Below, piece by piece: positions 5,919 to 64,000 of a stretch of 64,000 nucleotides of DNA (position 1 is its first letter; every line of letters starts with the position of its first letter). The stretch covers positions 1,653 to 65,652 of IMG/VR virus record IMGVR_UViG_3300045912_000129, one strand, 5' to 3'. Position numbers and translations under genes: made by a program. The notes beneath the pieces are model-generated. The model worked only from the letters and a program-made list of their open reading frames with translations. It was not told the origin of the DNA and searched no databases. The stretch is from a virus.

Positions 5919-6008
5919 ATTTATTAAATAATTAGCTTTTAAAGCACTTAAAATACCGAGTAATAGGTATATATTATTTAGTGATTACAGTGTCTTAAAA
6001 CTCAAATA

Positions 6009-9000
6009 TTAGCGTTTTGCAAGCAAATGATCTATTATAGTATCATCTTTATCAGTAGTACCAAATATACCTAACATGTTATTTATTGATTTTAATCCTA
6101 ATAAATTACTAGTGTAATAGAACAATGGTGTATTGTCTTTAATAGGTGATGTATCAATAGTCCAAGCCTTTTTACCTAATCTAGGAGTAGTTGTTTGATC
6201 CCAACCAGCTCCTGTTATTAAATCAATACCTTCTGTAAAAGTATTAGTAATCATATTATAGACAGTAGTAACACCACTAATAACAGGGAAAGGAGCTTTA
6301 GTTAACATTTGTGTAAACTCTCTAATACCTGTTAATGTAGGATCCATTGGTAAGTAAAAACCTATTTCTAATATCGTTCTGTCTAATACACTTAATATAC
6401 CATGTACTATAGGATTGTTTTTACGATCATCATCATCCCAAGCCATTCCAAATAACAGTAATAATAACATTACTGCATATAACATTCTTAACTCACCTAG
6501 TAATGCTTTTACTTGACCTACATGTTCTTTAACGTAATCATCATAAGACACTTTATCTTTAAGTTCAGGATTAGCTAATATAAAATCTTCATACATTTTT
6601 CTAAATTGTTCTTCATTATAATTTAAATTAAACCTACCACCAATTAAAGGTATCATCATTGGTAAAACTTTAGCAGTATTTTTTATTATATCACCTTTAA
6701 CAAAGTTAAGAGCAGCTCTCCACCTACCTATTTCATACTCTTCCATTGTCATATTATAACCTTCTTTTTTTAGTCTTTCATTAATAGTAGCTGGTATCCA
6801 TCCTCTATAATTCATTAACATTCTACCCATAATAGATGTTTTATAACCAGCTATATCTTCATCAGACATTTGACCTTTTACTCTACCAGCTATTTCTTTA
6901 ACCTTTCTTCTTATAGACATTACAGCCATGTCTGAAATATCTTCACCATTATTATCAATAATTTTCATAGTAGTATCATTACCATTAGGTATTTCTTCTA
7001 TACTATCCCATATAGATTTTATTTGAGCATCTGGGTATTTTTCTTTAAGTTTATCTATTCTATCTACTCTACTTGGATCTGTAGGATCAATAGCATAGTT
7101 CATTAACATTGCTGCAAATATTGTTCTTTCAATAGATTCATCAGCCATTTTATGAAGTTTATAATTCCAGTCTTCTCTTAGTGCTTTTCTTAATTTATTA
7201 GCTGACAGTTTGTTAGCTGTTATTGAACTAACATCTTCAGCTGTTATTTGTAACATATCAAATAATTCATTTACATATTTAGCTTTCTTATTGTCTTTAG
7301 CTAAAGGACCCATTACCATTGCTTTTGTAGCAGCATTTAATTGTTCTTCAGTATAATATTTACCTTTTTTTGCCATTGCTTTCATTTGAGCTCTAGAAGC
7401 TAAATAACCAGCAGAAGCAGATAGAGCATTAAATGCCATAGTAGCCCTACTATTAAGAGCTTGTGCAGCCATTATTGTTTTAGCAGCTTGTTGACCTACA
7501 GTACTATTTATTAAGTCTTCTTGTAATTTTTGACCATATACATAGTAATTAATGAATTGATCAAAAGCTTTTACAAGATTAGGATTAGATTTCTTAGTGT
7601 ACTCAGGAACATTAGTATTTGCAATTGTTTTTACACCATACGCTGTTTTAGTAATAAAAGGTGTATCTACAGCTAAACGTCTTAAAGAAAGAATCATGTC
7701 TTCATGTTGTTGTAATAAGCTAGTAGTTTTTGCCATGCTTGCAAATAAAAATAAAGACCTACCTAAATCTAAAGATTTTTCTTTAGGATCTATAGCATCT
7801 TGAAAGTATAATGGAATTTCTTTAACGTCATTTTTACCAGCAATAGTTAAAGATTTATCTTGAGGATCTAATAACTGATCTTTAATAGCAACAAGTTTTT
7901 CTTTTAATTTAGCAGGATTTAAAGCCGAACCCATACTTTCTTCAGCAAGTTTATCAACAAGTGTTTTTCTAACATTAGGTATAAACCATTTTTTTAAGCT
8001 AATACCAGTTTCATCTGATACTCTTTGTATTTCGTTTACAAATAAATTATAAAAGTCTAATAAAGGTTTATTTTCAGGTTTAATAATTTCTAAATACTCT
8101 TTAGAATACCATTTAGATGGTTCTTTAGGAGACATCAAATTCCATATAAAAGTATTATACCAAGCATTATTATTACCGTTATTATAGTAAATGTCATTGT
8201 TATTTAACCAGTTATTCATTTTCTTTTTGTACTCTTCTTCTGTTTTACTATTAGCTTTAAAAAAAGCATCTGCTTCTTTCTTTAAAGCTTGAAAACGATC
8301 TTCATCTGAAAGACCTGTTCTATCTTTTTCTGTAGATCTATGAAAAGTATTCTTAAACCATTCTATTGCTTCTGTGGTTTTATTTTCAGAGTATTGTTTT
8401 CTTAACTTAAATAATGAAACATCATACATTTTAATTAACTCATAATCATTATCATTTTCATTAAAAACAATTAAAGATTTGTAAATATCACTTCCTTTTA
8501 AACCTTTATTTTTACCCCATTCTTGCAAAGCATCAACACTTTCTTTAATTCTTTTTTGTAAATCATTTTCGTACTTTATTCTTTCATAATTAATTTTATC
8601 CATTGTTCTTGAAAAAGTAACAATCAAAGGATGATTTATAGATTTTAAATGAGCAAACCAAGTAGAACCAGCTCCTAAATCTTCTTGTTTTTGATAAGCT
8701 AAAAACTCTTCAGTAGTCATAAACTTATTATCAGTAACAAAATTAGTCAATCTTGTTAACATTAAACTTTCCAAAGCTACTTTATTTTGATTCATCAAAG
8801 TCAAAGCGTTACCTAAAGAAGATTCTAAAATACTAGCTTCTACTGGATCTACTTTTTTTAATTCAGCTACAGAACCACTAATGAAATCTAAAATGTTACT
8901 ATACAAATCAATTTCAGATAATAAAGAATTTATACCTTTAAATGTCAAATATCGAGGATCATTTTGATCATCAATATCAACAGCTACTTTAATTAAAGCA

Positions 9001-41234: not shown

Positions 41235-42782
41235 TTAGCCTTTGTAACAAATACCGTCATAAACTAATTGTTTAACTGAAAGTAGCGATTTAGCTACAGC
41301 TATTGCATTGATTAATGAATCGCAAAGTACAGAACAAGGGTCATATACTTTATAATTATTAATTTTTTCTAGTTTATTGTTTCTTAAATCTAAAGCCTGT
41401 CCTTTAGATATTTTAGATCTATACTCTTCGTAATGATTAATCAAATCACTATTAATAAGTAATTGTTTAAAAGGTTCTTCGATCGCATCTAATACAGTAT
41501 TGTAAGCTTTGTTATTTGAAGGACTGTATAAATCGTTTTTAACATTAATAAAAGTATAACCACCTCCTACGCATACTCCTTCTTTTATTGCTGAATAAAC
41601 AGCAAGAACAGCATCATCTAATCTATCTTTTATTTCTTTCATTTCTAATTCTGTACGACCTCCTGCGTATATAACAGCTACTCCTCCTGTTAAGTTAGCT
41701 AACCGTTTACGTAACCATTTTCTTTCCATATTTGATAGACTCAATTCATCGTTATCAGCATCTTCTTGTAACTTATACTTTATTTCTTCTATAATTTGTT
41801 CAACTAACTCTGTATCTTGTCTTCCGTCAAGAATAGAAGTATATAATTCTTCTACAATAACTTCACCAGCAAAACCTAAATTATTAACATCTTTAGCAGT
41901 ACCATTATCTACAACCCATGCTCCTGTTAAAGCTGCTAAATCATTCATTAAAGCTATTTTTCTATCACCAAATCCGTCATTTTCTACAACACAAACAGAC
42001 GCTCTACTTAATTCTAAGTATTGCTTAAGAGCTTTAGTAGCCATTGTTGACATGTCATTACAGAATATTAAAAGGTTAGAACCTAAACAAGCTTTTAAAT
42101 AATACTCGATATCTGATAGAGCGTGAATTTCATCATTTAGAATTAGAATATTTACATTAGTAGCTCTGTAAACCATTTCTTTAGCGTCATTAACCATAAA
42201 ACCTTCTAACCAACCTCTATGTAATTTCATACCTGCAGTTTTAACTACTACAGTTTCATTTCTTGGTGAAGTTTTTACTTCTATATCTCCATATATACCA
42301 ATTTCTTTTATAATGTCATAAATGAACTCACCAATCTTTTCATCGTTAGCTGAAATAGAAGCTACTTCTTTTAATAGTTCAGTATTAGATTCAATACTTT
42401 TAGTATACTTAGTTTTAATAGTAGTAATAATATCATTAAGAGCTTTATCAAATTCTTTAGCTAATTGATAAAAAGAATAACCTTCAGCTAACAAATCAAA
42501 ACCTTTATTAATTAAGTATTGAGCCAAAATCATAGTTGTTGTAGTACCATCTCCTGAAGAAAGCATTGTTTTAACAGCTGCTTCTTTAAGAACTGTCATT
42601 ACCATTGCTTCATAGCTATCATTACTAGAAACATGTCTAGCTACAGAAACACCATCCTTAGTAATATGAGGTTTATTTTCTTCAGTATTATAAAGTACTG
42701 TTCTACCTTTAGCACCAAGAGTTAATTTAACTGTATTAGCTAGTTGATTAACAGCTTTTAAAATCAATTCAGTAGTTGTCAT
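41235..42782 (-). CDS. groEL: Phage-encoded group I chaperonin (GroEL-like)
   Basis: Motifs VKLTLGAKGR, ITKDGVSVA, GDGTTT, GFGDRK, RLANLTGGVAVI and KDRLDDAV...EGVCVGGG. No GGM tail. Confidence 0.92.
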   Translation of the reverse strand: MTTTELILKAVNQLANTVKLTLGAKGRTVLYNTEENKPHITKDGVSVARHVSSNDSYEAMVMTVLKEAAVKTMLSSGDGTTTTMILAQYLINKGFDLLAEGYSFYQLAKEFDKALNDIITTIKTKYTKSIESNTELLKEVASISANDEKIGEFIYDIIKEIGIYGDIEVKTSPRNETVVVKTAGMKLHRGWLEGFMVNDAKEMVYRATNVNILILNDEIHALSDIEYYLKACLGSNLLIFCNDMSTMATKALKQYLELSRASVCVVENDGFGDRKIALMNDLAALTGAWVVDNGTAKDVNNLGFAGEVIVEELYTSILDGRQDTELVEQIIEEIKYKLQEDADNDELSLSNMERKWLRKRLANLTGGVAVIYAGGRTELEMKEIKDRLDDAVLAVYSAIKEGVCVGGGYTFINVKNDLYSPSNNKAYNTVLDAIEEPFKQLLINSDLINHYEEYRSKISKGQALDLRNNKLEKINNYKVYDPCSVLCDSLINAIAVAKSLLSVKQLVYDGICYKG

Positions 42783-51915: not shown

Positions 51916-52187
51916 ATTAGTTAATTTAAATAATTAGTTAGTTACTCTGGTTAATTATAACTACAAAGTTATGTTAAACTCTTTCCAAAAAATTATATAA
52001 AAATTTTAAATAGTCAAAACCTACCCCCTCCTGTTATTCAAAATTATTTTATCCCCCCCTACCCTTATCTATATGGGTTTATTTCTTTAAAAAACAGGCC
52101 TAATTTCAATTTTAAATTCAAAGTAATATAAATATACTACTCAATGATTAGAGTGTCTTAAATCGAAAGCTAGAGGGTTTAAAAGGC

Positions 52188-52253
52188 AAATTGAATTTTA
52201 GTTTAAGGGGAGTGATATTTAAAATTGAATTTTAGTTTAAAAGGAGTGATATT
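52188..52253 (+). repeat. Tandem 32-bp direct repeat (2 copies, 30/32 identical)
   Basis: AAATTGAATTTTAGTTTAAGGGGAGTGATATT (52188-52219) and AAATTGAATTTTAGTTTAAAAGGAGTGATATT (52222-52253). Confidence 0.85.
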
Positions 52254-52339
52254 ACCTCCTATAACCACCCCCCTTTAGTTTTGGGAGGATTCCTCCCCCG
52301 GTAGGCATATTGCCTATCGGAAACTTTAAAAACTAAAAA

Positions 52340-52804
52340 ATGAAAATCAATTATTCAAAAGTCCTGGCGGAGCTCCGCCAGGCAGTCCAGACCGGCTCAG
52401 GGAGCGGATGGATTTTATTGACAGAGGACTCACTAAAGGTCCTCATGAATAGCCTCGGCGTGACCTCCGCCGCCGAGCTATTAAGCAAACAAGCGGAGTT
52501 CGTCACGGTACCATGCTATTTCGTACTTGAAACCCCTCCTTCAGAAGGCAAGGGGGCAAAGTACACCAGCCTTGCAAACCCTTTCCAAGGGGTCGAGGGT
52601 GGGCTAACCACCATCGACTGGAGCAATAAGATCTCTACTCCATACGCCTCCGGAGTAATCCGGAAGTGTACCAGAGAGGGTATTGTTTTTTGGTTAGCAG
52701 AAAAGCCGACCGGAAAATACGAAACTGGCTTTTACTACCGTGTCGCCCGCAAGGGCGAATCCAAGGCCTCTGTTAAACAGGGCCTCACGAAAAAACCTGT
52801 ATAA
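52340..52804 (+). CDS. Hypothetical early protein
   Basis: 154 aa with an A-rich leader; first gene on the + arm. Confidence 0.6.
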   Translation: MKINYSKVLAELRQAVQTGSGSGWILLTEDSLKVLMNSLGVTSAAELLSKQAEFVTVPCYFVLETPPSEGKGAKYTSLANPFQGVEGGLTTIDWSNKISTPYASGVIRKCTREGIVFWLAEKPTGKYETGFYYRVARKGESKASVKQGLTKKPV

Positions 52805-52961
52805 GGTTTCCCTAGTTAAATAGGGTTTTTACGCCTATATATACTGACCAAATATAGGCAATATACAGGTCCCCGCGCTATGGGTTAATAGCACGAAGAT
52901 CAACCCCATTATTATAATGGGGTTTCTTTTTATAAACCATTTTGCAACGTAGTTAGCATTT

Positions 52962-53596
52962 GGGGGCAGAGAAAAGGTATAGCTTAGGCTATATTCGCGC
53001 ATCTGTCCCGGCAAGAAGACCTGTCGAGCGCGAACAGGCTATCCTACTCTAGTCGGGAAGTAGGACGAACAGAACCGACCTCCACTTCGGTGTGGAGAAA
53101 TTTCCCTTCGGGGAGCCCTTGTACAGTGGGTGAGGTCAACCTCAACTGTACGATGAACCGCCATGGTGACATGGTACTTAACTCGGTAGTGGGAGTTAAG
53201 CTAAGGGTTGCAAGAAGTTACTCTACGGAGTAATGAGCACTCACTACGGCAGTACCCTACGGGGTGAGGTGTCCTAACAGGCCCTCTCATGAACTGCCCA
53301 CACAGACCCAGTGACGACTGGTAATCTGTGGGATGACACACCGCTGACGAGCGGGAATCGCCTAGTTGACTAGGCGTGGGTTGATCACCCTAACAATCCG
53401 TTCCTACACGTTATGTAGGTTGGTATATCTCGTCGTTGGGAGTATACCGTAAAAAGAAAGAAGCCTGTGGCACGCAGGTGAGCACTCAACGATGACCTCA
53501 CGTCTTACTAAAAATCAAGTAAGAGTGTAGGAAAAAGGAGGAGCGGAGTGGCTTTTCCTAGGATCAATGTGGTTACCACATAAACGATCCAGTGCA
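52962..53596 (+). ncRNA. Candidate large structured ncRNA 1 (about 640 nt), upstream of tRNA-Glu
   Basis: No ORF in the track. More than 15 consecutive hairpins, including C(UUCG)G at 53085 and 53106 and C(UACG)G at 53223 and 53257. Confidence 0.6.
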
Positions 53597-53606
53597 AAAA
53601 TTTTAA

Positions 53607-53678
53607 AGCCCATTCGTCTATCGGTTAGGACGTCAGATTTTCATTCTGAAAAGAGGAGTTCGATTCTCCTATGGGCTG
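53607..53678 (+). tRNA. trnE: tRNA-Glu(UUC), no encoded CCA
   Basis: Acceptor AGCCCAT/ATGGGCT, anticodon arm TCAGA-TT TTC AT-TCTGA, T-arm AGGAG-TTCGATT-CTCCT. Confidence 0.92.
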
Positions 53679-53706
53679 CAAAGCTACTTGCATTTGCAGT
53701 AGCCTA

Positions 53707-53895
53707 ACCTCCCCTACAGCTGCTATGCCGTGTATTGGCTCTAAAGCACTTAGGGGAGGGATTTAATTTTATTCTCTCTTATACTGCAATGCCCTGGCCA
53801 TTTGGAGCAGCGGCAAGACAGGTAAGGAGAATAAAATATCAACAAACCTCCCCTACAGTTGCTTGGGTTCAAGCCGTGAAGCACTTAGGGGAGGA
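53707..53895 (+). repeat. Two copies of a CCTCCCCTA...TAGGGGAGG irregular hairpin
   Basis: Copies at about 53707-53760 and 53847-53895 share ACCTCCCCTACAGYTGCT...AAGCACTTAGGGGAGG. Confidence 0.75.
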
Positions 53896-54152
53896 TTTTA
53901 ATATTAAAACTCCGTTGGTCTATCGGAGTATAAAACATAGACTCCCGCGTTATTCCTGCGGGTATCCCCTCTGGGGATAATAGCTCCCTCATAGAGGGTA
54001 TATCTGACATTTTGCCGTGGTGTCAGATGAATTAGAATGCGGCACCTCGCTAGCATACCGAGGTATATAAATAGTATGCTTATTTTTTAATTCCCCTTAC
54101 GGGGCGTTACCCTTGACGAGACAAGGCGTGACCCTGGAAGGGGTTTTGAATC

Positions 54153-54296
54153 ATGACGATTAAAGAAATATTTAATCTTCTGGTCGACATGTACGACCAG
54201 GAGCTCTACTCCCTCGAGCGTCACCACGTAGGTGATGCTCAATTGTTGGTAGCCTTGGAAAAGGCTATCAACATCTTGAGACCTTTCGTTAAGTAG
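54153..54296 (+). CDS. 47-aa protein (paralogue A, HVGD motif); not in the ORF track
   Basis: MTIKEIFNLLVDMYDQELYSLERHHVGDAQLLVALEKAINILRPFVK. Similar to the next ORF and preceded by the same leader. Confidence 0.65.
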   Translation: MTIKEIFNLLVDMYDQELYSLERHHVGDAQLLVALEKAINILRPFVK

Positions 54297-54495
54297 TGAA
54301 AGGTCTCAAACTCCGTGTCATTCCGGAGTCTAAACATAGAATGACAAACCGCGTTACCTTCCGCGGTATATAAGTAGAAGGCAGTAATATTGACCGCCTA
54401 CACCTGGCGGTATATAAATAAGGTGTATTATTTAATCCCCATTAGGGGCGTTACCCTTGACGAGACAAGGCATAGCCCTGGAAGGGGTTTTCGAT

Positions 54496-54666
54496 ATGGT
54501 GATTACTGAAATGAGCCCAAAGGGCTTAATCAATTTAATATTCAACCTTTATCAGGTTGAATATTATAAAATGCGGGGTCACGTAGGTGATCCCGCCTAC
54601 ATGGCCCTGCTCGAAAAATTAATCGAGCAGCTCGAGGCTTATGTAGGGGAAGACTGGTTCCTCTAA
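54496..54666 (+). CDS. 56-aa protein (paralogue B, HVGD motif)
   Basis: MVITEMSPKGLINLIFNLYQVEYYKMRGHVGDPAYMALLEKLIEQL. Start revised to the ATG at 54496. Confidence 0.65.
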   Translation: MVITEMSPKGLINLIFNLYQVEYYKMRGHVGDPAYMALLEKLIEQLEAYVGEDWFL

Positions 54667-54892
54667 CATAAGCCTCAACTCCGCGTCATTCCGGAGTATA
54701 AATATAGAATGACAACCACGCAACCTCCCGTGGTATACAAATAGGAGGCAGAAGAAATGACCTCGCTGACATACCGAGGTATATAAATAGTATGTTATTT
54801 TTTGCAGTGTAGTTGCACTGCCACCATAAAGTAGTAAACGGGGTGTAAGCCGTTATAACTACATATTGTTCACCTTCCATCCCCGAACTATT

Positions 54893-55507
54893 ATGGAAGG
54901 GAAGAAAAAGGATCGCGAGATCCGTCACTCAGCCCGTAAAATACACGGGTTGAAGAGTCTTCCTTGTCCGCCGATAGTTCGGTGGATGGGAGCATTTGGC
55001 ACTTTTAATGGGGAAGAAAGTGCCAAATGGGAGGCCTCCGACACACGAATGAAGTGTGCGGAGGTACTACTGCCCAATGGCAATGGGTCTTTTATGTCCA
55101 AATGCGGACAGAGATCCATTGGTATTGGTCTCTTAGTAGATCAAGCCAGAACACCATTGTTCAGAGCGTACAACTACGACGCTTGGACGAACAATGGTAA
55201 AAAGGGTTCTGTACCCTTTGGCGACTCTACTAAGTTGTACAGCATGTACAAAACCCACGAAAACTTAGTTTATGTAACTAAGTATCGTGAGGTGGCGGCC
55301 ATGCTACAACTCCACCATAACTACAACAGTTATTTGTGGACAGAGGCCACCATTGGAGACGGGAAGCGAGCACCCGTCTACAAGGCAGTAGTTTGCGATA
55401 CTGCTCGCAGCTGGGCAGTGCGCCAGCAAGCCATAAAAATGGCTGCAGCACTGAACGTTGAGGTCATCTGGGTAAACGACCTCAAGGCTATGAACTTCCC
55501 CACATAG
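54893..55507 (+). CDS. Hypothetical early protein (204 aa)
   Basis: ATG at 54893, followed by a terminator. Confidence 0.65.
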   Translation: MEGKKKDREIRHSARKIHGLKSLPCPPIVRWMGAFGTFNGEESAKWEASDTRMKCAEVLLPNGNGSFMSKCGQRSIGIGLLVDQARTPLFRAYNYDAWTNNGKKGSVPFGDSTKLYSMYKTHENLVYVTKYREVAAMLQLHHNYNSYLWTEATIGDGKRAPVYKAVVCDTARSWAVRQQAIKMAAALNVEVIWVNDLKAMNFPT

Positions 55508-55567
55508 CTCCTAGCAGACGGCACCTCTCTGGTTTTGCAGAAGCTGCCGGAAAAGAAACAAAAAAAA

Positions 55568-55597
55568 AGGAGGTAGACCAGACTACCTCCTATTTTT
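55568..55597 (+). terminator. Intrinsic terminator (possibly bidirectional)
   Basis: A-run, AGGAGGTAG-ACCAGA-CTACCTCCT, then ATTTTT. Confidence 0.8.
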
Positions 55598-55638
55598 CAA
55601 CTAAAATTTTCTTTGAAAGAGAGAAGAAAATTTTTTAA

Positions 55639-56175
55639 CGGGTGAGGGGTGAAATTCCCTGTGGCTAACGACCCGGCTACTATATACATGTTGACATGTA
55701 ATTATAGTTAGCGAACAATGTAGCCTATGGTACTCTCCCAATAAAAGGGTAGTCTTATAAGACTATAGGGAAACCGAGAGTACGTTTACAATAATGACGA
55801 TGATGCAGCTTTACCTGCTAGAAACATCTAGTTATATGTAAACGAGGTGAGTCCTCCAAGTGCGGCACCAGGCTGAGTGAGGGGATGCTGGTGCATTGTT
55901 ACTATTTCCTGCGTAGTAACAATTATTAAAGGTGATAGTGGTACAATCACCTTGCAGTGTTACAAAGAGAGATACTAGGGAGTGGCGTCCCGAAAAGATA
56001 CCTGGCAAGTATCAGTATCGAGAGTAACAAACGGGAATATCGTACCAACGAGGAACACAGGTTCCATAGTCTGCCCGTCCGATAAAGTCCCAATCCCAAA
56101 GGTAATGGGGATACTTATTGGAGAAAGAAGAGCCGTGCCACGCGGTAAAGTATGTGGGAGAGTAAACTCTAAATC
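55639..56175 (+). ncRNA. Candidate large structured ncRNA 2 (about 540 nt)
   Basis: Nested stems (GGCTAC/GTAGCC, GTACTCTC/GAGAGTAC, CGTTTACA/TGTAAACG, GCACCAG/CTGGTGC, TTGTTACTA/TAGTAACAA, AAGGTGAT/ATCACCTT). No credible ORF. Confidence 0.6.
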
Positions 56176-56627
56176 ATAACCAGCTGAAGATAGATACTTT
56201 ATATTTATCTCCAGCTGGTTATATTAAACCATTTGCAGTGTAGTTAGCATTGAAACATAAAAAGTAAAGGCGTTGATCTTACGCCTTAATTGATGCCTTA
56301 ATTGGCTAGAGAAGAGATCAAACCCCTGGTTATACTGTTCGCCTCCGAAAGCGCTGCTTCTGACTTGGCAACATGTATAAAGAATCCGACAGGGCATATC
56401 ACCGTTCTTAGTAGAGCTTCTTGGGTGATAACGATTCTAATATTAATTTAACTCCCGAAATGAAACCAAGCGTTCCTTTTTGAAAGAAAAAGAAAACGCT
56501 TGGTTTCTATCAAACCCTTTGCAGTGTAGTTAGCATTAACCGCGAGAGGCTATCCGCGGTATACAAATAGATGAGCCATTAATTGTTAATAAACCCTCCC
56601 GCTAGCATATCGGGAGTAATAAATAAT

Positions 56628-56828
56628 ATGCTTGTTATGACTCCAATCTTTATTCAGGTGGGGACTACCGTCTACGTGGGCGGTGGTCTCCACCTTGCCC
56701 AGTTTGCCATAGACTGGGCAACAAGAATAGGGAAGGAGTATACTGTACTCCCTTTCGGAGTACAATTCTCCTTCTCATCAGTAGACATGGCCTCACAGGC
56801 CTATGATCTACTGAGATCTATGGCTTAA
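56628..56828 (+). CDS. Small hypothetical protein (66 aa)
   Basis: ATG at 56628 or 56638. The listed TTG start runs through a pseudoknot element. Confidence 0.5.
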   Translation: MLVMTPIFIQVGTTVYVGGGLHLAQFAIDWATRIGKEYTVLPFGVQFSFSSVDMASQAYDLLRSMA

Positions 56829-57036
56829 TTTTATCCCGCTGGCATACCGGGATTAATAAATAGTATGCTTATTTTTAACCATTTGCAGTGTAGTTAGCAT
56901 TGAAACAACTCTTGACGAGGAGTATAAACTACGTATCAGTTCAATCGTCATACGAACTGATTAGCCCATGACGAAATCGGAGTGTGGGACCTCCAACTGT
57001 TTTTTTTACTTCATTAATTAATATATATATTAAATA

Positions 57037-57942
57037 ATGAAGTTTCTAGTTCTCGCCAAACCACTCGCGGTAGAGTTTGGCAGAGAATCCCTTATAGAGG
57101 AATTTATCTCCTCTATGGGGGCGCGTGTGCTTGCGAAAAAGCACATGGTGTGCGATTCGTCCAGGATCGCACGCCATTACCAGCAATTTGCTGGCAAGCC
57201 TTTTTTCCAGGGGCTTGTAAAATATTATACTGGAAAAAATATTGTCGCATATATGTGCGAGTGCGACAATATTGAAGTTCTCATGGCTATCCGCGAAGCC
57301 ATGGGGACAGCTAAAGTTTCTCCCAATTCATTTCGGGAGAAACTTATTGGAGACGTCTATGCAGAACGTTTCCAATCAGTGGGTGTCATTGACAATGGCA
57401 TCCATTGTAGCGATTCTGCTGAGGAAGGACTGCGAGAAATTGCAGTATGGTTTGGTGTGCCACCGACTTCCTCTCGCACAGAAATGGCACACAAGGCGGT
57501 ATGGAAGATTCTTTCTTCCGTATCCAAAGTAGACTCTCTGCAATACGCAGGGGGCGAACACGATGGCACTGCTATCGAGGGTAGTGTCATTGATTTGGAT
57601 TACCGCCTATTGACTAACGACATGCCCTTTGTCGTTAGCCAACTCGAAAAAAAAGGGCTAGTCATTGACAAGCGTAGTGTTGATGACGAAAGTGGGGCTG
57701 AATATGTTAAATTTGAAATCCGTTTTACGGGTGGCAAATGCGACATTGCAGTAGTTCCCACTGCAGCCTACGCAAACCAAGTAAGTAAATCTCATCTGAT
57801 TTACTTGGTTTCTGATACTCTCAAAGATGAGGTAAGAGCTATTAAAGCTAGTGCGAAAGCTACTGGTGATAAACAGCTCTACAAAGACGTAAAGCGGCAA
57901 TGTCGCAAACGTCTACTTGAGAGTATCAACTGGGTGGACTAA
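57037..57942 (+). CDS. ndk: Nucleoside diphosphate kinase fused to a Pol-beta-type nucleotidyltransferase domain
   Basis: N-terminal NDK: KP, HY...GKPFF..LV.Y and NGIHCSDS (phospho-His), ending EIAVWF. C-terminal: YAGG...GTAIEGSVIDLDY and KCDIAVVP. Confidence 0.8.
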   Translation: MKFLVLAKPLAVEFGRESLIEEFISSMGARVLAKKHMVCDSSRIARHYQQFAGKPFFQGLVKYYTGKNIVAYMCECDNIEVLMAIREAMGTAKVSPNSFREKLIGDVYAERFQSVGVIDNGIHCSDSAEEGLREIAVWFGVPPTSSRTEMAHKAVWKILSSVSKVDSLQYAGGEHDGTAIEGSVIDLDYRLLTNDMPFVVSQLEKKGLVIDKRSVDDESGAEYVKFEIRFTGGKCDIAVVPTAAYANQVSKSHLIYLVSDTLKDEVRAIKASAKATGDKQLYKDVKRQCRKRLLESINWVD

Positions 57943-58165
57943 ATAAAGAGAATGTGACGTCCACTCTTGCGTACCACGAGCGCATACTCGTGTAGCTTTT
58001 TTCTAATACGTTTTGTAGTTACCCAACAAAACGTATATACCTATGCCGTGATTCTATTTACTAGATAGCGTAGGTGCAAAGGATACTGGACACCTTTGAA
58101 CAGGAGCATTGGCAGAGTATAGATGTACTCCCCTCAGCCATTAACCACTCAATAAATAAATAAGA

Positions 58166-58720
58166 GTGGATAAAAAAATCTTCTTGTCTATCTACCAGCA
58201 GATAGACACAGATTTTCAGAGCTACGCAGCCAGCGTATGCTCTGTTTTAGGAGGAAACTTCCTCCCTGGTCCCATGAAAACATGGGAATCTTGCAGCCGT
58301 AAAGCAAAAGCAGACGGCTGCGAGATTAGTGACTTGAAAGACATCATCAGATGTTCTTTCATCTTCACTACCGAGGAGGAAGTTATGTATGCGATGAATC
58401 GCATACAATCCCTTGCTGAAGTTGTACGAGTAAAAAATCGTATGACTTCTAAAGGATACAGAGATGTGCTCATCAATGTATCCTTCATGGGAATTGTATG
58501 TGAAATACAATTGCATACAGCTCTTGGTTTAGCAGCCAAAGACGGAAAGGTGATCAATCACCCGACCGTTAATACTTGGTCTGCTAAACTTGGCCCCTTT
58601 GCTGGATGGGGTCACAAGCTCTATGAGCTTGAAAGAGCAGCCTCCCATCCGACTGTTGCAGCTATCATTGCTGTAATGGGTGTATGGTATTACGGATTAG
58701 TCCGTAAACTACTTTCGTAG
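58166..58720 (+). CDS. RelA/SpoT synthetase-like (small alarmone synthetase-fold) protein
   Basis: PMKTWES..RK, DLKDIIRCS, KGYRDVLINV, CEIQLHT and GHKLYE match SYNTH-domain motifs. GTG start. Confidence 0.7.
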   Translation: MDKKIFLSIYQQIDTDFQSYAASVCSVLGGNFLPGPMKTWESCSRKAKADGCEISDLKDIIRCSFIFTTEEEVMYAMNRIQSLAEVVRVKNRMTSKGYRDVLINVSFMGIVCEIQLHTALGLAAKDGKVINHPTVNTWSAKLGPFAGWGHKLYELERAASHPTVAAIIAVMGVWYYGLVRKLLS

Positions 58721-58781
58721 TACCATACAAAAAACTCAGCTATCCAAGTTTCTCGGTTTAGAGGATAGCGAACTACTGTTT

Positions 58782-58900
58782 ATAAGTTACAAGCAGCGTG
58801 TAGTTAATCTACAGGTTAAGAAGATGTGTTATCTTCTCAGGCTGTCTCTGCCAGGGCACAAAAGTGCGTCTAGTAAAGAGGTTCGCAGCTTGTAACTTAT
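58782..58900 (+). ncRNA. Multibranch RNA-like element closed by a perfect 13-bp stem
   Basis: ATAAGTTACAAGC (58782-94) pairs with GCTTGTAACTTAT (58888-900). Inner hairpins TGTAG/CTACA, GAAGAT/ATCTTC and GCAC/GTGC. Confidence 0.5.
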
Positions 58901-58912
58901 AAAATAACTTAT

Positions 58913-59287
58913 ATGACAAAAGTATTCAATTTTGGACACCCACTGTCCCAAAGTGCTATCACTAAGATCGAACAATACTTCGGTCAAGTACAGCACATCA
59001 AAGTGGGTGTCCAATTAAATGTTTTCGATGCGGACGCACCAGGCATCGAACAACAAGTATTAGACGTGGTGCGACCATACGCTACCGATTTTAACGGAGC
59101 GGAGCGTATGGTAATCATTAGTCCAGGAATGAGCAATGCTGCATGGGTATTAGCAGCAATCATTCATGGATTATCGGGGAGATTCCCCGAACTTGTTGAG
59201 CTTCGTCTCAACTCCGATAAAGTCTTTGACTTTTATAGAGTCATCGACTTGCAGGAGTTTAGAAACGAAGTCCGCAAGATCCGTTAG
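58913..59287 (+). CDS. csx15: Csx15-like protein (type III CRISPR accessory, candidate ring nuclease family)
   Basis: FNFGHPL, IEQYFG, PG...AAWVLAAIIHGLSGRFPELVELR and IDLQEFR match the Csx15 pattern as recalled. Confidence 0.78.
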   Translation: MTKVFNFGHPLSQSAITKIEQYFGQVQHIKVGVQLNVFDADAPGIEQQVLDVVRPYATDFNGAERMVIISPGMSNAAWVLAAIIHGLSGRFPELVELRLNSDKVFDFYRVIDLQEFRNEVRKIR

Positions 59288-59349
59288 CAAATATACCCTG
59301 ATTAACAGCTTATGGCACAGGGTATTTAATAACTATAAATCTAAACACT

Positions 59350-59703
59350 ATGATAAAAATAACTAGTGTTTCACAAATATTAAAAGAGGGTTTTACCCTC
59401 GACTTCCTAGTAGGTAAATACATCGCCTACAAAGGATGTATTATCCCCATAATTAACACTCCAACTCTGGAGGTTAATCAATGGGGATTACTACCAGACG
59501 AGATAGAACATCTCGTCAATTTGGATGAGGGGCAAATAGAGTATGAAACTACGTTTGTAGTTTCAGATAATCAAAAAGATTTAGTTCCTTTTCTTGGACT
59601 AAATCCATGCGCTCTCTTCTCACTGGAGGTTAAAAAATACTCCCCTCATACAAACATGAGTGAGGAGGATTTTAAGTACCTCCTTAATTTATTAACAATT
59701 TAA
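59350..59703 (+). CDS. Hypothetical protein
   Basis: 117 aa with ATG and an A-rich leader. Confidence 0.55.
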   Translation: MIKITSVSQILKEGFTLDFLVGKYIAYKGCIIPIINTPTLEVNQWGLLPDEIEHLVNLDEGQIEYETTFVVSDNQKDLVPFLGLNPCALFSLEVKKYSPHTNMSEEDFKYLLNLLTI

Positions 59704-59934
59704 AAATAGCCAAATCAAACCATCTTTGCAGTGTAGTTAGCACTAAAACATATCCCGCTAGCATACCGGGATCAATAAATAGCATGCTTCTACTACTAAG
59801 CAGACGTTTCGATACGTCGTGTTAAATAAGGGCTTAGTAGTAAGGGAGCGTGTCCCGTAGATTAAAACGCTGACTGACAGGAAAGACTGTCTTACCTAGC
59901 TGTGAACTCGTATGAGGTGAGGCTAGGGACATCC

Positions 59935-59995
59935 GGGGTAGAAAATGGCGATTGCTGTAACAACAGCAAAGTGGGTTCGATTCCCACCTATCCTT
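59935..59995 (+). ncRNA. D-armless tRNA-like element (61 nt)
   Basis: Acceptor GGGGTAG/CTATCCT, canonical T-arm GTGGG-TTCGATT-CCCAC, a 10-nt linker in place of the D-arm, and a 7-bp hairpin with a 4-nt loop in place of the anticodon arm. Confidence 0.6.
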
Positions 59996-60082
59996 GCAAA
60001 TTCCCGCTGGCATAACGGGTAAAGTATGCTATATTATTAACCAAACCCGCCGTGCCGGGGTATAATAGCACGATTTAAACGT

Positions 60083-60304
60083 ATGAAATTTAATTTTCAA
60101 ACCATCTTCATTCCCTCCTTGAATTTGGAGGTGAATGAGTTCCAATTTTTGAGCCTTCGGGCTCAAGTTAAACAAGGAGTACTCCCTCCCTTTGATTTTA
60201 CCGATACCAACGGTAAAGTCATTGGAAGCGTAGACTCCAACGGTCGTGTAGAAGGAGAATACCCCTTCACCGACCTTAACGACATGTTAACTACTCTTTT
60301 GTAG
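60083..60304 (+). CDS. Hypothetical protein
   Basis: 73 aa, flanked by pseudoknot elements. Confidence 0.55.
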   Translation: MKFNFQTIFIPSLNLEVNEFQFLSLRAQVKQGVLPPFDFTDTNGKVIGSVDSNGRVEGEYPFTDLNDMLTTLL

Positions 60305-60464
60305 TTAGCATGTCCCCGCTGGCATACCGGGTAAAGTATGCTACCGTAACACCTCGGTTATAATAAGGTGCAGTAATGACTCTGCTGGTATACCGGAGTA
60401 TAAACTAGTATACTGAAACTTCGTTTCTTTGAAAGAAAAAGGAAACGATTAAAAAATTAAACTT

Positions 60465-60737
60465 ATGATGAACAAAGAAATTTTAGATCTCCTTGAGATG
60501 ATTCTCAAAGGAGATCAAGAGGCAATTGCCTCTATTATAAATACCCAAATCAATCGGTTGCAAATTGCAGCCGACGATTGGGACAACAACCATCACGGTA
60601 GCAATAGCTCCATCTACCGTGAGTATCTAGAGATGGAGCTTAGTACAGCAACTGGTATGATTGCTGTACTGAAAAAACATAATCATACCACACTTGCAGA
60701 TAAACTCAGCATTGCTGTAGCTTATTCTGCAGTGTAA
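60465..60737 (+). CDS. Hypothetical helical protein
   Basis: 90 aa with an A-rich leader. Confidence 0.55.
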   Translation: MMNKEILDLLEMILKGDQEAIASIINTQINRLQIAADDWDNNHHGSNSSIYREYLEMELSTATGMIAVLKKHNHTTLADKLSIAVAYSAV

Positions 60738-60856
60738 TTTTTTCCGCTAGCATACCGGGTAAAGTATGCTATCAAACCCTTTGCAGTGTAGTTAGCTATA
60801 CCGCTTGCATACCGGTTATAATAGTATGCTATTCATTAACCAAAAACAATCAGACC

Positions 60857-61102
60857 ATGAAAATAAAAATTAAATCCACCAGTGCATTAGCACGGTGGAT
60901 CAAAGCCATCGAAAACAGTCTCAATATTGCTCGTTCTGAGCAGTATGAGGCAGCTTATATGGGGGAAGATTCTCTTTTCTACGACGAAATCGTAGAAAAA
61001 GGAGAGTCAACTCTTCGTCTCATTGAGAGAAGAGTTAAAAAACTCTCCCCCAAAAAACAAGCAATTCTTAAGCCTCTCATTGAGAGAGCTTGGAATGCTT
61101 AA
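60857..61102 (+). CDS. Small helical protein, paralogue of 63557-end
   Basis: STSALARWIK...LRLIERRVKKLSP...ILKPLIERAWNA aligns with the last ORF. Confidence 0.65.
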   Translation: MKIKIKSTSALARWIKAIENSLNIARSEQYEAAYMGEDSLFYDEIVEKGESTLRLIERRVKKLSPKKQAILKPLIERAWNA

Positions 61103-61221
61103 AACAAATCGCGTAACCTCCCGCGGTATATAAGTAGGAGGCGTTTATAGTTAACACTAGCCCTTTGACAGCTGGGGCTATATAAATGAGCTGTTAATTC
61201 TTTTGAAAAACCAATAAAACT

Positions 61222-61638
61222 ATGAATATGACACACAAAAAAGAAGAAGTAGTTGTAAAACCCTACTTACTAAACATCAGTAACCACCCCTCCTCTGGAT
61301 GGACTGATAAACAAATCATGGCTGCCCGAAGAGATTATCGGGCAATAATTGACTTCTCTTTTCCAAACGTCGACCCTGAGCTCGACGAGGAAGGAGTTCG
61401 TCAACTAGCAGAGAAAACCATTTTTGACATTCTTTGGCATTTGCCAGAGAGAAGTGAGGCATTAGTAGCCCACGTCATGGGCGAAATGTCCTTGGTATAT
61501 CAAATGGTCAATCTGCTGGAGTCTAAAAACATCACTTGTATTTGCAGCACCACCAAGAGGATTGTGGAGGTGCTTCCAAACGGACAAAAACTCAGCAAGT
61601 TTGAGTTTGTCCGTTTTAGACCATATGTAGCTAAATAG
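61222..61638 (+). CDS. csx20: Csx20-like protein (type III CRISPR ring nuclease family)
   Basis: LLNISNHPSSGW...Q..AA, DFSFPNVDP, HVMGEMSL, CSTTKR and FEFVRFRPY match the Csx20 pattern as recalled. Confidence 0.82.
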   Translation: MNMTHKKEEVVVKPYLLNISNHPSSGWTDKQIMAARRDYRAIIDFSFPNVDPELDEEGVRQLAEKTIFDILWHLPERSEALVAHVMGEMSLVYQMVNLLESKNITCICSTTKRIVEVLPNGQKLSKFEFVRFRPYVAK

Positions 61639-62169
61639 CACATATGGTTTAACCGCTAGCATACCGGTTATAATAGTACGCTAACCGTGTAATCTCTCAC
61701 GGTATATAAATAAGAGTAGTATTGACCCTGCTTGCATATCAGGGTATATAAATAGTATGCTTAACTAAACATAAAGGAGTAGAGTACTCGCACCTCTATT
61801 TTCTTTTATGTTTATTTTAATTTATCAACTTTACTTCTTATGGTTTTTAATTTAATTACTTTTCTTTTTTTTCTTTAAGACTTCCCAGGAGTATCTTGTA
61901 GTGCGAGCAAGAGAAACTGGGTGTATCCTATTCTTTTGAGGACAAGAATAGGAAAAATAAAGTCCTCCACTGCTTTAGTGTCATTTTGATACTAAGGCAG
62001 TGTTTTAACCAGATGTTCTTGAAACAAAGAGAACACTGGTTATTAAACTTTTTGCAGTGTAATTAGCTGCAAACCTCTTTAGCATATAGAGGTTATAAAG
62101 AATATGCTGTTTTATGCTTGAAAGAAATTAAAAAGTCTTTCAAGTTTTATTAACATAAAATTTATCACT

Positions 62170-62529
62170 ATGAATCTTCTCTCTTCACTCGACAGTGTAA
62201 ACTTGTTACTGGCAGCAAGTTTACCCTTTGAAGCTTTCTATGAGCAATTCATGGAGAGCTTAACTTTTTGCCGTGAATTTCATGGTAAAGGTTTTGACAA
62301 AGTTGACTTTACCAACTTTGACAATGCCAGCCTTAAAAGACCTGATCTTCTCTTGGGTGTATGTTTTACACCCAAGTATGTGTTCCTATATGCTTACCAT
62401 GGCAAATGGGAGCACTCAAGTCGAGTCAAACTCTCTGCTGAAACGTCTCTTTCAGACTACTTGTCAGCAGTAGAGTCTGTTACCAAAACCTTTGCAGAAA
62501 TAGTTTACAACTACCTCAAAGGTTTGTAA
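62170..62529 (+). CDS. Hypothetical protein
   Basis: 119 aa with ATG. Confidence 0.55.
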   Translation: MNLLSSLDSVNLLLAASLPFEAFYEQFMESLTFCREFHGKGFDKVDFTNFDNASLKRPDLLLGVCFTPKYVFLYAYHGKWEHSSRVKLSAETSLSDYLSAVESVTKTFAEIVYNYLKGL

Positions 62530-62566
62530 AAAACCCCGCTAGCATACCGGGTAAAGTATGCTAATT

Positions 62567-62728
62567 ATTGAGTAAGCTAACGGCTTACAAGTGCAGCAAG
62601 GAGAAATGCCTTGTGATGCAGCCAGCTAGTCATATGACTAACGGTATATGTTATGCAGACATCTGAGAGATGATGCTCCACATATAGCCCGGAGATGGTG
62701 TTTAGTTAGTCCACTAAGCTTACTCAAT
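62567..62728 (+). ncRNA. Multibranch RNA-like element closed by a perfect 12-bp stem
   Basis: ATTGAGTAAGCT pairs with AGCTTACTCAAT. Inner hairpins CAAGG/CCTTG, TAGTCA/TGACTA and CATC/GATG. Confidence 0.5.
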
Positions 62729-62832
62729 TTTTAATGAGTGATCTTGAAAGAAATGACAAGATTGCTTATTACTAACAGCGTAACTTCTCAAGTTTAAAAG
62801 GAAAGTTAATCTTGTGAATTACGCTATAATAT

Positions 62833-62903
62833 ACTTCATTCGTCTAATGGTAAGACGCTAGATTGTCTATCTAGAGATAAGAGTTCGATTCTCTTATGAA
62901 GTG
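62833..62903 (+). tRNA. trnD: tRNA-Asp(GUC), no encoded CCA
   Basis: Acceptor ACTTCAT/ATGAAGT, anticodon arm CTAGA-TT GTC TA-TCTAG, T-arm AAGAG-TTCGATT-CTCTT. Confidence 0.92.
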
Positions 62904-63047
62904 CAACCGTGTAACTTTCACGTTAAAAAAGTACTCTGTAACACTCAGAGTTTAAATATAAAGTGTTTTCACTATTTATTTTTTCACCACCCCGCAAGGG
63001 CGTTACCCTTAACGAGATAAGGCCATGCTCTGGAAGGAGATTAAACC

Positions 63048-63377
63048 ATGGTAAAAGTACAGTCAATCAGTGTAGTGTGCCAGCTAAAAGGCTTGAAAAG
63101 CCTTGTTAACAAGTACTGTCTTCTTCCTAGTGGAGAGATAGTGTTTGTTAATAAATGTCCAAAGATAAAAATGGACCATACAGGGAAAACTATGGTAGAG
63201 TTTAATGGGGATCAATGCGTCCCCATTGAGAGAACCATAGCGTTTTCCAAACACCAAGAACCATTAACTAATTTTCAAACCCTAGCTAACAAGCTATGGT
63301 GTTTGAAGATTAGGAAAAGACCCTCAGACGTACCACTTGGTGTTTACCGGGTGTGTAAAACGTTGATGGGGGTATGA
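63048..63377 (+). CDS. Hypothetical protein behind the third structured leader
   Basis: 109 aa. Confidence 0.55.
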   Translation: MVKVQSISVVCQLKGLKSLVNKYCLLPSGEIVFVNKCPKIKMDHTGKTMVEFNGDQCVPIERTIAFSKHQEPLTNFQTLANKLWCLKIRKRPSDVPLGVYRVCKTLMGV

Positions 63378-63556
63378 TCTTGGTAAAACCGCGTAACTCC
63401 CGCGGTATACAAATAGGAGCAGCATTAATCCGCTAGCATACCGGTTATAATAGTGTGCTATATTAAACCTTTTGCACTGTAGTTAGCAACAAACCTCGTA
63501 AGCACACCGAGGTATATAAGTAGTGTGCTATTCATTAACCATAAAAACATCAAACC

Positions 63557-64000
63557 ATGAAAAGAACTTTTCAGACGAACCAAGAGTTCGTCGCAGCAAT
63601 GTACCAAATGAGAGCCATCAGCACCCTCACTAAATGGATCAAACAGATCCAATCCATTCGCAGCATTGCTCGTTATGAAGAGCATGATGCGGTTATGGGA
63701 GGAGCCGACTCCTCTCTGTACGAGGTTCTCGTTCCTTCAACCGATGCTTCTCTTCGCATCATTGAAAGGGAAGTTGCAGAACTCTCCCCTGAAGACCAAA
63801 CCATCTTCAAGCCTCTTATTGATAGTGCTTGGGGTGCTTATTCCCCAACCGAAAAAGCTGCACACTTAGAGGAGGACCAAGAGTTCTCTGAAACAGTGTG
63901 CAAAAAAGCGGTCAGCACACTCAGCAAATGGCTGAAAAATCTCCAAGAAATCCGTATCATTGTTCGTCATGAAAAACATGATGCGATTATTGGAGGAGGA
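63557..64000 (+). CDS. Internally repeated helical protein (3'-truncated; not in the ORF track)
   Basis: ATG at 63557, open to the window end. AISTLTKWIKQIQSIRSIARYEEHDAVMGG is repeated as AVSTLSKWLKNLQEIRIIVRHEKHDAIIGG. Confidence 0.7.
   Translation, partial: MKRTFQTNQEFVAAMYQMRAISTLTKWIKQIQSIRSIARYEEHDAVMGGADSSLYEVLVPSTDASLRIIEREVAELSPEDQTIFKPLIDSAWGAYSPTEKAAHLEEDQEFSETVCKKAVSTLSKWLKNLQEIRIIVRHEKHDAIIGGG

Follow-up and report, generated by a model that had tools for sequence, protein, structure and literature searches.

Pyrophosphokinases of the Tas1/Apk type have been described from several settings, and the domain family, its chemistry and its occurrence in phages, both as MuF fusions and as the toxins of toxin-antitoxin pairs, are already known. 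For Tas1 (also called Apk1), an effector of the type VI secretion system (T6SS) of Pseudomonas aeruginosa, and for Apk2, which phages encode as a MuF fusion, (p)ppApp is the sole product (PMC12226406), and FaRel, one of the toxic small alarmone synthetases (toxSAS), makes (pp)pApp (PMC7229694, PMC11782079). So far, (p)ppApp synthetases of the Tas1/Apk type have been known as delivered or tightly neutralised toxins, associated with the T6SS, the type VII secretion system, MuF heads, Sec export or toxin-antitoxin pairs. Here we analyse a gene of this type in a 64,000-nucleotide (nt) stretch of DNA (the window; positions 1,653 to 65,652 of IMG/VR record IMGVR_UViG_3300045912_000129), which makes up the greater part of a 66,227-bp record from an uncultured virus, estimated to be 43% complete (CheckV). 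What is new is that the gene belongs to a distinct clade of stand-alone enzymes, is placed in the early arm of a crAss-related phage that looks virulent, is without a recognisable immunity gene, and is coupled to a gene for a nucleoside diphosphate kinase fused to a nucleotidyltransferase-like domain (NDK-NT), often with a Csx15 gene following.

58166-58720, plus strand: gene for a stand-alone, Tas1/Apk1-like SYNTH-domain pyrophosphokinase of 184 amino acids (aa), GTG start, pI 8.8.

A first-pass annotation, made from the sequence of the window by itself, had proposed a stand-alone RelA/SpoT-like synthetase in the early region, and the open reading frame (ORF), its predicted fold and its membership of a stand-alone clade all bear this out. 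The start codon is backed by five homologues of 180-185 aa (55-85% identity) that align from residue 1, and an orthologue with 60% identity on contig L032, which was binned with a Bernardetiaceae metagenome-assembled genome, has an ATG at the matching position. Comparison with this orthologue gave a pN of 0.28, a pS of 0.63 and a dN/dS of ~0.25, with dS near saturation, pointing to a gene under purifying selection. The Pfam model RelA_SpoT (PF04607) scored the protein at 16.5 bits (E 0.011), or 17.3 bits in a six-frame search, against a gathering cut-off of 27; because several clear relatives likewise score at or below this cut-off, the model is insensitive to the Tas1-like branch. A profile of six close sequences searched against the PDB found Tas1 (6OX6) at E 8.5e-7; the second-best entry had an E of 0.25.

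The AlphaFold2 model, built on 35 relatives, reached a pLDDT of 96.6 and a pTM of 0.89. Its top Foldseek match was Tas1 (E 4.9e-10, TM 0.77), and among the 70 PDB matches at E<=1e-3 the best 23 entries were all RelA/SpoT homologue (RSH) or small alarmone synthetase (SAS) enzymes. When aligned with VIA-align, 179 of the 184 residues could be superposed on Tas1 (6ox6_A; Z 19.0, root-mean-square deviation 2.6 Å, 25% identity), followed by RelQ (Z 14.6), SaEAS (8vx3; 14.5), RelP (13.9; the RelQ/RelP range extends down to 13.3), CapRel (12.0 over 160 residues), FaRel2 (8.6) and FaRel (8.3). Matches in a viral structure library were a siphovirus protein named Tas1 and the RelA/SpoT domains of large polyvalent phage proteins, and the ORF also matches PHROG 7625 ("head morphogenesis"), in the C-terminal part of that family. 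The SYNTH domain spans residues 1-182 of 184, and there is no N-terminal delivery module of the PAAR/Rhs, MuF, LXG or Sec-signal kind; residues 3-28, where a signal peptide would lie, form helix 1 of the domain in the model. We also considered the hydrophobic C-terminus (residues 163-180) as a membrane anchor and rejected it, as this segment is a packed helix in the model, aligns with the last helix of Tas1 and is not hydrophobic in the homologues.

The SYNTH motifs named in the first-pass annotation hold up well, their catalytic residues being invariant or nearly so over the 35 relatives. K38, K46, D59, R62, E113, Q115, K125 and R157 do not vary at all, Y98, G109, G149, H150, Y153 and Y176 hardly vary, and S42 is conserved within the window clade alongside K38 and K46. 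We used the residue roles described for FaRel2 (PMC11782079) as a map for assigning the active site. By this alignment, K38, S42 and K46 are the predicted binders of the donor-ATP phosphates and D59 the predicted Mg-binding residue, the G-loop tyrosine Y98 is predicted to stack on the acceptor base, and E113 and Q115 correspond to the putative adenine-reading E-x-Q; K125, H150 and R157 would bind the acceptor phosphates. A loss of active-site geometry in structural models, which the annotation had named as an argument against its proposal, was not seen, since the geometry is kept in the AlphaFold2 model.

The annotation had also noticed PMK in place of the usual RxK, and rightly so: P36-M37-K38 occupies the RxK position, Tas1 has PIK there, and an arginine at this position was found in 0 of the 35 aligned relatives. 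By these alignments, the PxK variant of syn1 is the norm of the Tas1-type branch, and its hallmark. What had been missed is that the enzyme is specifically Tas1/Apk-like, which accounts for the PMK, and that the very next gene downstream encodes a Csx15 homologue. As to the remaining motifs, the adenosine-type signatures of Apk2 are RYT, GxN and YH in syn2, syn3 and syn4, respectively (PMC12226406). In the window protein, syn2 reads R62-C-S, which fits R-x-(S/T), with R62 at D+3 and the serine at D+5, where Apk2 has a threonine. Its syn3 is D100-V-L102, part of a GYRD-V-L that is invariant in the clade, and not GxN (Tas1 has GYSGVN), and syn4 is Q115-L-H, in which the H is present and the Y is not.

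An exhaustive profile search returned 1242 relatives at E<=1e-3. Many of these are C-terminal or internal domains, found in MuF head fusions with the architecture of Apk2 (P0018 and P0029 among them), in ADP-ribosyltransferase polyvalent proteins and in giant proteins exceeding 3000 aa. A quick maximum-likelihood tree (IQ-TREE) of 134 domains unites the window protein with P0002-P0009 and the L032 orthologue in a single clade (SH-aLRT 96, stem 0.67), all members of which are stand-alone proteins of 158-185 aa; MuF-fused and Tis1-linked members are found on the opposite side of the tree. None of the 155 family proteins retrieved is fused to relatives of the NDK-NT, Csx15 or Csx20 proteins of the window, and no relative of these three proteins was found at 28 distant loci.

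The gene directly preceding the synthetase, and the leader that separates the two, are as follows.

57037-57942, plus strand: NDK (residues 1-140) fused to a putative small C-terminal nucleotidyltransferase-like domain (~150 aa).
57943-58165, plus strand: putative structured leader separating NDK-NT from the Tas1-like gene, recognised by its terminator-like site and by comparison with L032 278-524.
57975-57992, plus strand: terminator-like hairpin with T-run, within the leader.
58006-58036, plus strand: 11-bp hairpin, within the leader.
58103-58140, plus strand: pseudoknot candidate within the leader, just 5' of the start codon.

The kinase domain is supported by Pfam NDK (E 4.7e-18), by the NCBIfam NDK model and by matches to NDK structures in the PDB. 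On L032, the last 91 aa of an NDK-NT (74% identical) stand directly upstream of the Tas1-like orthologue. A search for longer NDK-NT fusions returned a single protein, P0156, of 572 aa and from a Logan assembly (contig of 4537 bp), residues 261-572 of which are 39% identical to the NDK-NT of the window. P0156 consists of an alarmone-synthetase-fold domain (47-161), a helical linker of ~100 aa, an NDK and the small nucleotidyltransferase-like domain that the window protein also has at its C-terminal end of NDK-NT. Aligned with the Tas1-like profile, residues 47-161 gave an hhalign probability of 95.8% (E 7.5e-9), with K/S/K, D-x-x-R, GY, CE and HKxYE-x-R all present, and the AlphaFold model of this N-terminal domain is confident, shares the order of strands and helices and has small alarmone synthetases as its best PDB matches (SAS1 on top). 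The fusion and the synteny shared by two independent contigs are good evidence, at the level of gene organisation, that the synthetase and NDK-NT may work together. The first-pass annotation had suggested a module for the takeover of tRNA or nucleotides; the link to the NDK-nucleotidyltransferase gene is upheld by the gene order on L032 and by P0156, whereas the tRNA part is not, the fold being nearer to the nucleotide-making Tas1.

The leader appears to be conserved as a structure with three stems, as judged from two sequences aligned by eye. Pairing is kept despite changes on both sides of the stems: CACGAG/CTCGTG in the window corresponds to CCCAGC/GCTGGG on L032, and TGGC/GCCA to TGCC/GGCA. 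The pseudoknot candidate reads GGAG..TGGC..CTCC..GCCA in the window and GGAG..TGCC..CTCC..GGCA on L032.

The absence of an evident antitoxin, likewise claimed in the first-pass annotation, holds for the known classes. The 193-nt gap downstream of the gene contains no plus-strand ORF of at least 40 aa, and the six frames of the 66-kb record gave no match to Tis1_ImmP (PF24154), HD_4 (PF13328) or HD (PF01966). Relatives present a different picture: 12 of 13 that are stand-alone or C-terminal, on metagenome or phage contigs, have an ORF of 50-88 aa (65-88 aa in 10 of the 12) that overlaps their end or starts within ~70 nt of the stop codon. Two of these small ORFs match Tis1_ImmP strongly (those of L005 and L006, with E values of 3e-36 and 4e-33), and a further two match it weakly. 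As a test of absence Tis1_ImmP is insensitive, since one of 17 related records matched it and most of the ~75-aa ORFs beside relatives have no Pfam match.

ORFs of 65-76 aa without a Pfam match occupy the immunity position at six of these loci (L003, L004, L008, L009, L010 and L013), and probably represent undescribed immunity families for Tas1-like toxins. In a further case, an unannotated scaffold of a human-gut phage (L015, MT835636.1), a stand-alone Tas1-like gene at 5929-6543 is followed by an 88-aa ORF at 6611-6877, which has a weak match to Tis1 immunity (E 4e-4, or 1.3e-5 in a six-frame search).

The record is divided into two arms of different composition. The late arm (6009-51915, minus strand, GC 0.29) encodes the major head protein, the portal, the large terminase and a GroEL-like chaperonin, and the large terminase shares 26-28% identity with its counterparts in crAss-like phages of Bacteroides, Flavobacterium and Cellulophaga. 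We regard the phage, from its gene content, as a distant crAss-like and virulent-looking one. As roles of the synthetase, the first-pass annotation had put forward host shut-off or superinfection exclusion. A search for an integrase in the 66-kb record, of which 43% completeness is estimated, gave none, which seems to fit a virulent phage better than prophage-type exclusion. At ~52.2 kb (boundary 52100-52500) GC rises sharply to 0.42, a level that it keeps for the rest of the window (52200-64000); this is the early arm, on the plus strand, with small ORFs, two tRNA genes, long gene-free stretches and a low coding density. Since the GC of the Tas1-like gene itself (0.436, with 0.42 at third codon positions) equals that of the early arm (0.424), the gene is not a recent insert. 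A single distant homologue (27% identity) was found in a phage collection, in which the early arm had no DNA match, and scans of IMG/VR with the alignment of the close clade and with Csx15 revealed no close relative. The GroEL-like gene of the late arm (41235-42782, minus strand; PHROG 5725, E 1.8e-110) lies between the portal and head genes.

An Rfam search returned just the two tRNAs and a 17-nt tmRNA fragment, the latter probably by chance. The tRNA genes, tRNA-Glu(UUC) at 53607-53679 and tRNA-Asp(GUC) at 62833-62904, are each followed by CAA and not CCA. Phage tRNA genes without an encoded CCA are commonplace, as the host enzyme can add it, and we rejected the CCA-less tRNAs as a clue to function because they are uninformative.

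Two genes downstream of the synthetase resemble proteins of cyclic-oligoadenylate signalling.

58913-59287, plus strand: Csx15 homologue of 124 aa (full-length match to NCBIfam NF040560, E 1.4e-16, with 60.9 bits where the cut-off is 35).
61222-61638, plus strand: weakly Csx20-like ORF, 2.5 kb downstream (NCBIfam NF040559, E 3.9e-7, 30.5 bits against a cut-off of 70, C-terminal half only).

The Csx15 assignment is further supported by PADLOC (Csx15, 2e-11) and by the Csx15 structure 9tet in the PDB (E 5.3e-7). Csx15 is a nucleotide-binding, Rossmann-like protein (PMC13148439) that was shown in 2026 to be a ring nuclease or sponge for cyclic oligoadenylates, with viral copies that are described as rare (bioRxiv 10.64898/2026.10.26.761840) and have tentatively been designated AcrIII-3. 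The homologues P0159, P0160 and P0161 (84, 73 and 67% identity) come from contigs of 4052, 2338 and 2678 bp, and three close homologues of the Tas1-like protein (P0002, P0004 and P0003) come from contigs of these same sizes, each sharing its source with the matching Csx15 homologue. Judging from the matching contig sizes, the pair of Tas1-like and Csx15 genes very probably recurs on three other contigs, that is, with 3 of the 5 close homologues. From its neighbours, the Tas1-like gene looks to be within an apparent anti-defence island.

Taken together, we give an even chance to the reading that the gene encodes a catalytically competent, (p)ppApp-type pyrophosphokinase that belongs to the Apk1/Tas1 branch, is produced early and, together with NDK-NT, acts on the nucleotide pool of the host. 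The gene would be transcribed with the early, high-GC arm of the phage, and the predicted chemistry is that an adenine nucleotide receives the beta-gamma pyrophosphate of ATP on its 3'-OH, yielding (p)ppApp and AMP. With the adjacent NDK-NT, the enzyme would form a nucleotide-conversion module that rewires or drains the ATP and purine pool early in infection, while the neighbouring ring-nuclease homologues would quench defence signalling by cyclic oligoadenylates. As the phage gives no sign of lysogeny, a cognate immunity protein would not be needed on this reading, nor, if the phage is virulent, any protection of the host, and we propose this as the reason why the immunity gene of ~75 aa is missing. 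The nearest branches that have been characterised, Apk1 and the phage Apk2, produce (p)ppApp exclusively, and the conserved basic residues appear to fit a polyphosphate acceptor rather than a tRNA. We infer the acceptor nucleotide, the product, early expression, the cooperation with NDK-NT and the purpose from these lines of evidence, and the locus looks like a tool for nucleotide takeover or anti-defence rather than a toxin-antitoxin pair.

Several observations weigh against this reading. SaEAS, which is Tas1-like, prefers guanylate acceptors, namely GMP, GDP and GTP, and VpEAS uses GTP (PMC12691689), so that the fold does not fix the acceptor. The GYRD-V-L of the clade in place of the GxN of the proven enzymes means that the acceptor pocket is not identical, and turnover of the Tas1 class would starve the phage of ATP, in which case the enzyme must be slow, regulated or directed at another acceptor; the different loop and the starvation problem together leave room for a different acceptor or pathway product. 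As for the neighbours, the linkage to Csx15 elsewhere was deduced from matching contig sizes and not from DNA that was read, and the L032 orthologue has unrelated ORFs and no Csx15 downstream. The synthetase domain of P0156 is divergent, with Q115 replaced by I and RelQ nearer than Tas1 in Foldseek, and an hmmsearch with the profile of the family alignment missed it at E 1e-2. Finally, the record is 43% complete, so that a gene for immunity or for a hydrolase could be encoded outside it, and the diversity of immunity proteins is considerable, as shown by the ~75-aa ORFs near relatives, most of which have no Pfam match.

The guanylate preferences of SaEAS and VpEAS, within the Apk1/Tas1-like radiation, raise the alternative that the enzyme makes (p)ppGpp, or purine alarmones promiscuously, and forces the host into a stringent-like state with rRNA shut-off and growth arrest. 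The Z-scores of SaEAS (14.5) and RelQ (14.6) against the model and the lack of GxN in syn3 are in line with this, but Tas1 is by far the best structural match, 4.4 above the next, and the guanosine-type SxH in syn3 and arginine at D+5 in syn2 are both absent, the arginine being R62 at D+3 and a serine standing at D+5; we consider this alternative unlikely. If, on the other hand, the acceptor is something other than a free housekeeping nucleotide, the pyrophosphokinase, the NDK and the nucleotidyltransferase could constitute a short pathway to a new nucleotide, or could supply a 3'-blocked ATP with which Cas10 or CD-NTase cyclases would be terminated or decoyed, complementing Csx15 and Csx20. 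The order of NDK-NT and Tas1-like gene kept on L032, the three-domain fusion P0156, the recurrent Csx15 neighbour and the clade-specific, invariant GYRD acceptor loop are consistent with such a pathway. It is nonetheless pure gene-neighbourhood reasoning in a region of a kind where phages pack unrelated genes, a terminator-like hairpin separates NDK-NT from the Tas1-like gene, and L032 is without Csx15. In the literature searched, nothing beyond reviews ties (p)ppApp to cyclic-oligoadenylate signalling. We think it improbable that the phage makes a 3'-pyrophosphorylated adenylate or a derivative of it as an anti-defence molecule, for example a 3'-blocked ATP analogue poisoning Cas10 or CD-NTases, through a three-enzyme pathway deployed with Csx15 and Csx20 in one early anti-signalling island.

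Two further explanations see the protein as a toxin of a more familiar type. It might, like CapRel, FaRel2 and PhRel2, pyrophosphorylate the 3'-CCA of tRNAs and so shut off host translation, given the shared fold superfamily, the CapRel match (Z 12.0 over 160 residues) and the tRNA genes of the early arm. This seems to us quite unlikely, because CapRel (12.0) and FaRel2 (8.6) stand far below Tas1 (19.0), PDB sequence searches gave no match to either even at E 10, the basic residues are of the sort expected for a polyphosphate acceptor, tRNAs encoded by the phage itself would suffer and the lack of CCA in their genes says nothing. Alternatively, the synthetase could serve as toxin in a toxin-immunity or abortive/exclusion pair, with the Csx15-like protein as a new kind of immunity factor, which would work by binding the enzyme or by sequestering its product. 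The arrangement of a toxin followed by a small gene, the apparent presence of Csx15 homologues on the contigs of three close homologues and the nucleotide-binding, Rossmann-like character of Csx15 (PMC13148439) speak for such a pair. The Csx15 match, however, is full-length and above the curated cut-off, as for an ordinary family member, the two genes are 193 nt apart and do not abut, L032 has no Csx15, and where immunity to Tas1-like enzymes is known, it is provided by Tis1/IapK or an HD hydrolase; we consider this explanation very unlikely.

Compared with the described systems, the window protein is closest to Tas1/Apk1, with which it shares the whole domain including the C-terminal helices (Z 19.0), the PxK of syn1, the arginine at D+3 in syn2 and the ExQ and GHKxYE motifs. 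It differs from Tas1 in having no PAAR or other delivery domain and no Tis1 gene, in being encoded in a phage early region and not in a T6SS locus, and in the GYRDVL of syn3, where Tas1 has GYSGVN. Apk2 of temperate phages is likewise phage-borne and of the same domain family. However, Apk2 extends a prophage head protein at its C-terminus and has the immunity genes iapK and aph1 downstream (PMC12226406), whereas the window protein is stand-alone and encoded in the early arm, and no genes of the iapK or aph1 type were found in the 66-kb record. SaEAS (8VX3; Z 14.5) and VpEAS (PMC12691689) are also small SYNTH proteins of the Tas1-like kind, with no immunity gene in their operons, but they carry Sec signal peptides and act extracellularly, and the window protein has no signal peptide. 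The toxSAS (FaRel, FaRel2, PhRel, PhRel2 and CapRel; PMC7229694, PMC11782079) are toxic proteins that resemble it as single-domain synthetases of the RelA/SpoT fold, some of them phage-encoded, yet their structural match is weaker (CapRel 12.0, FaRel2 8.6, FaRel 8.3) and they gave no sequence match; in addition, no adjacent Tis1-like or small alarmone hydrolase (SAH) antitoxin was found at the window gene, where no search was made for pZFD. Against the delivered or neutralised toxins known so far, the present enzyme is a bare version in a phage clade, without a recognisable immunity gene, coupled to NDK-NT and often to Csx15. If it is active, virulent phages would apply alarmone-type chemistry to their hosts from inside, and the locus would offer a tractable three-gene module for studying the roles of (p)ppApp in infection and its possible interference with nucleotide-based immunity.

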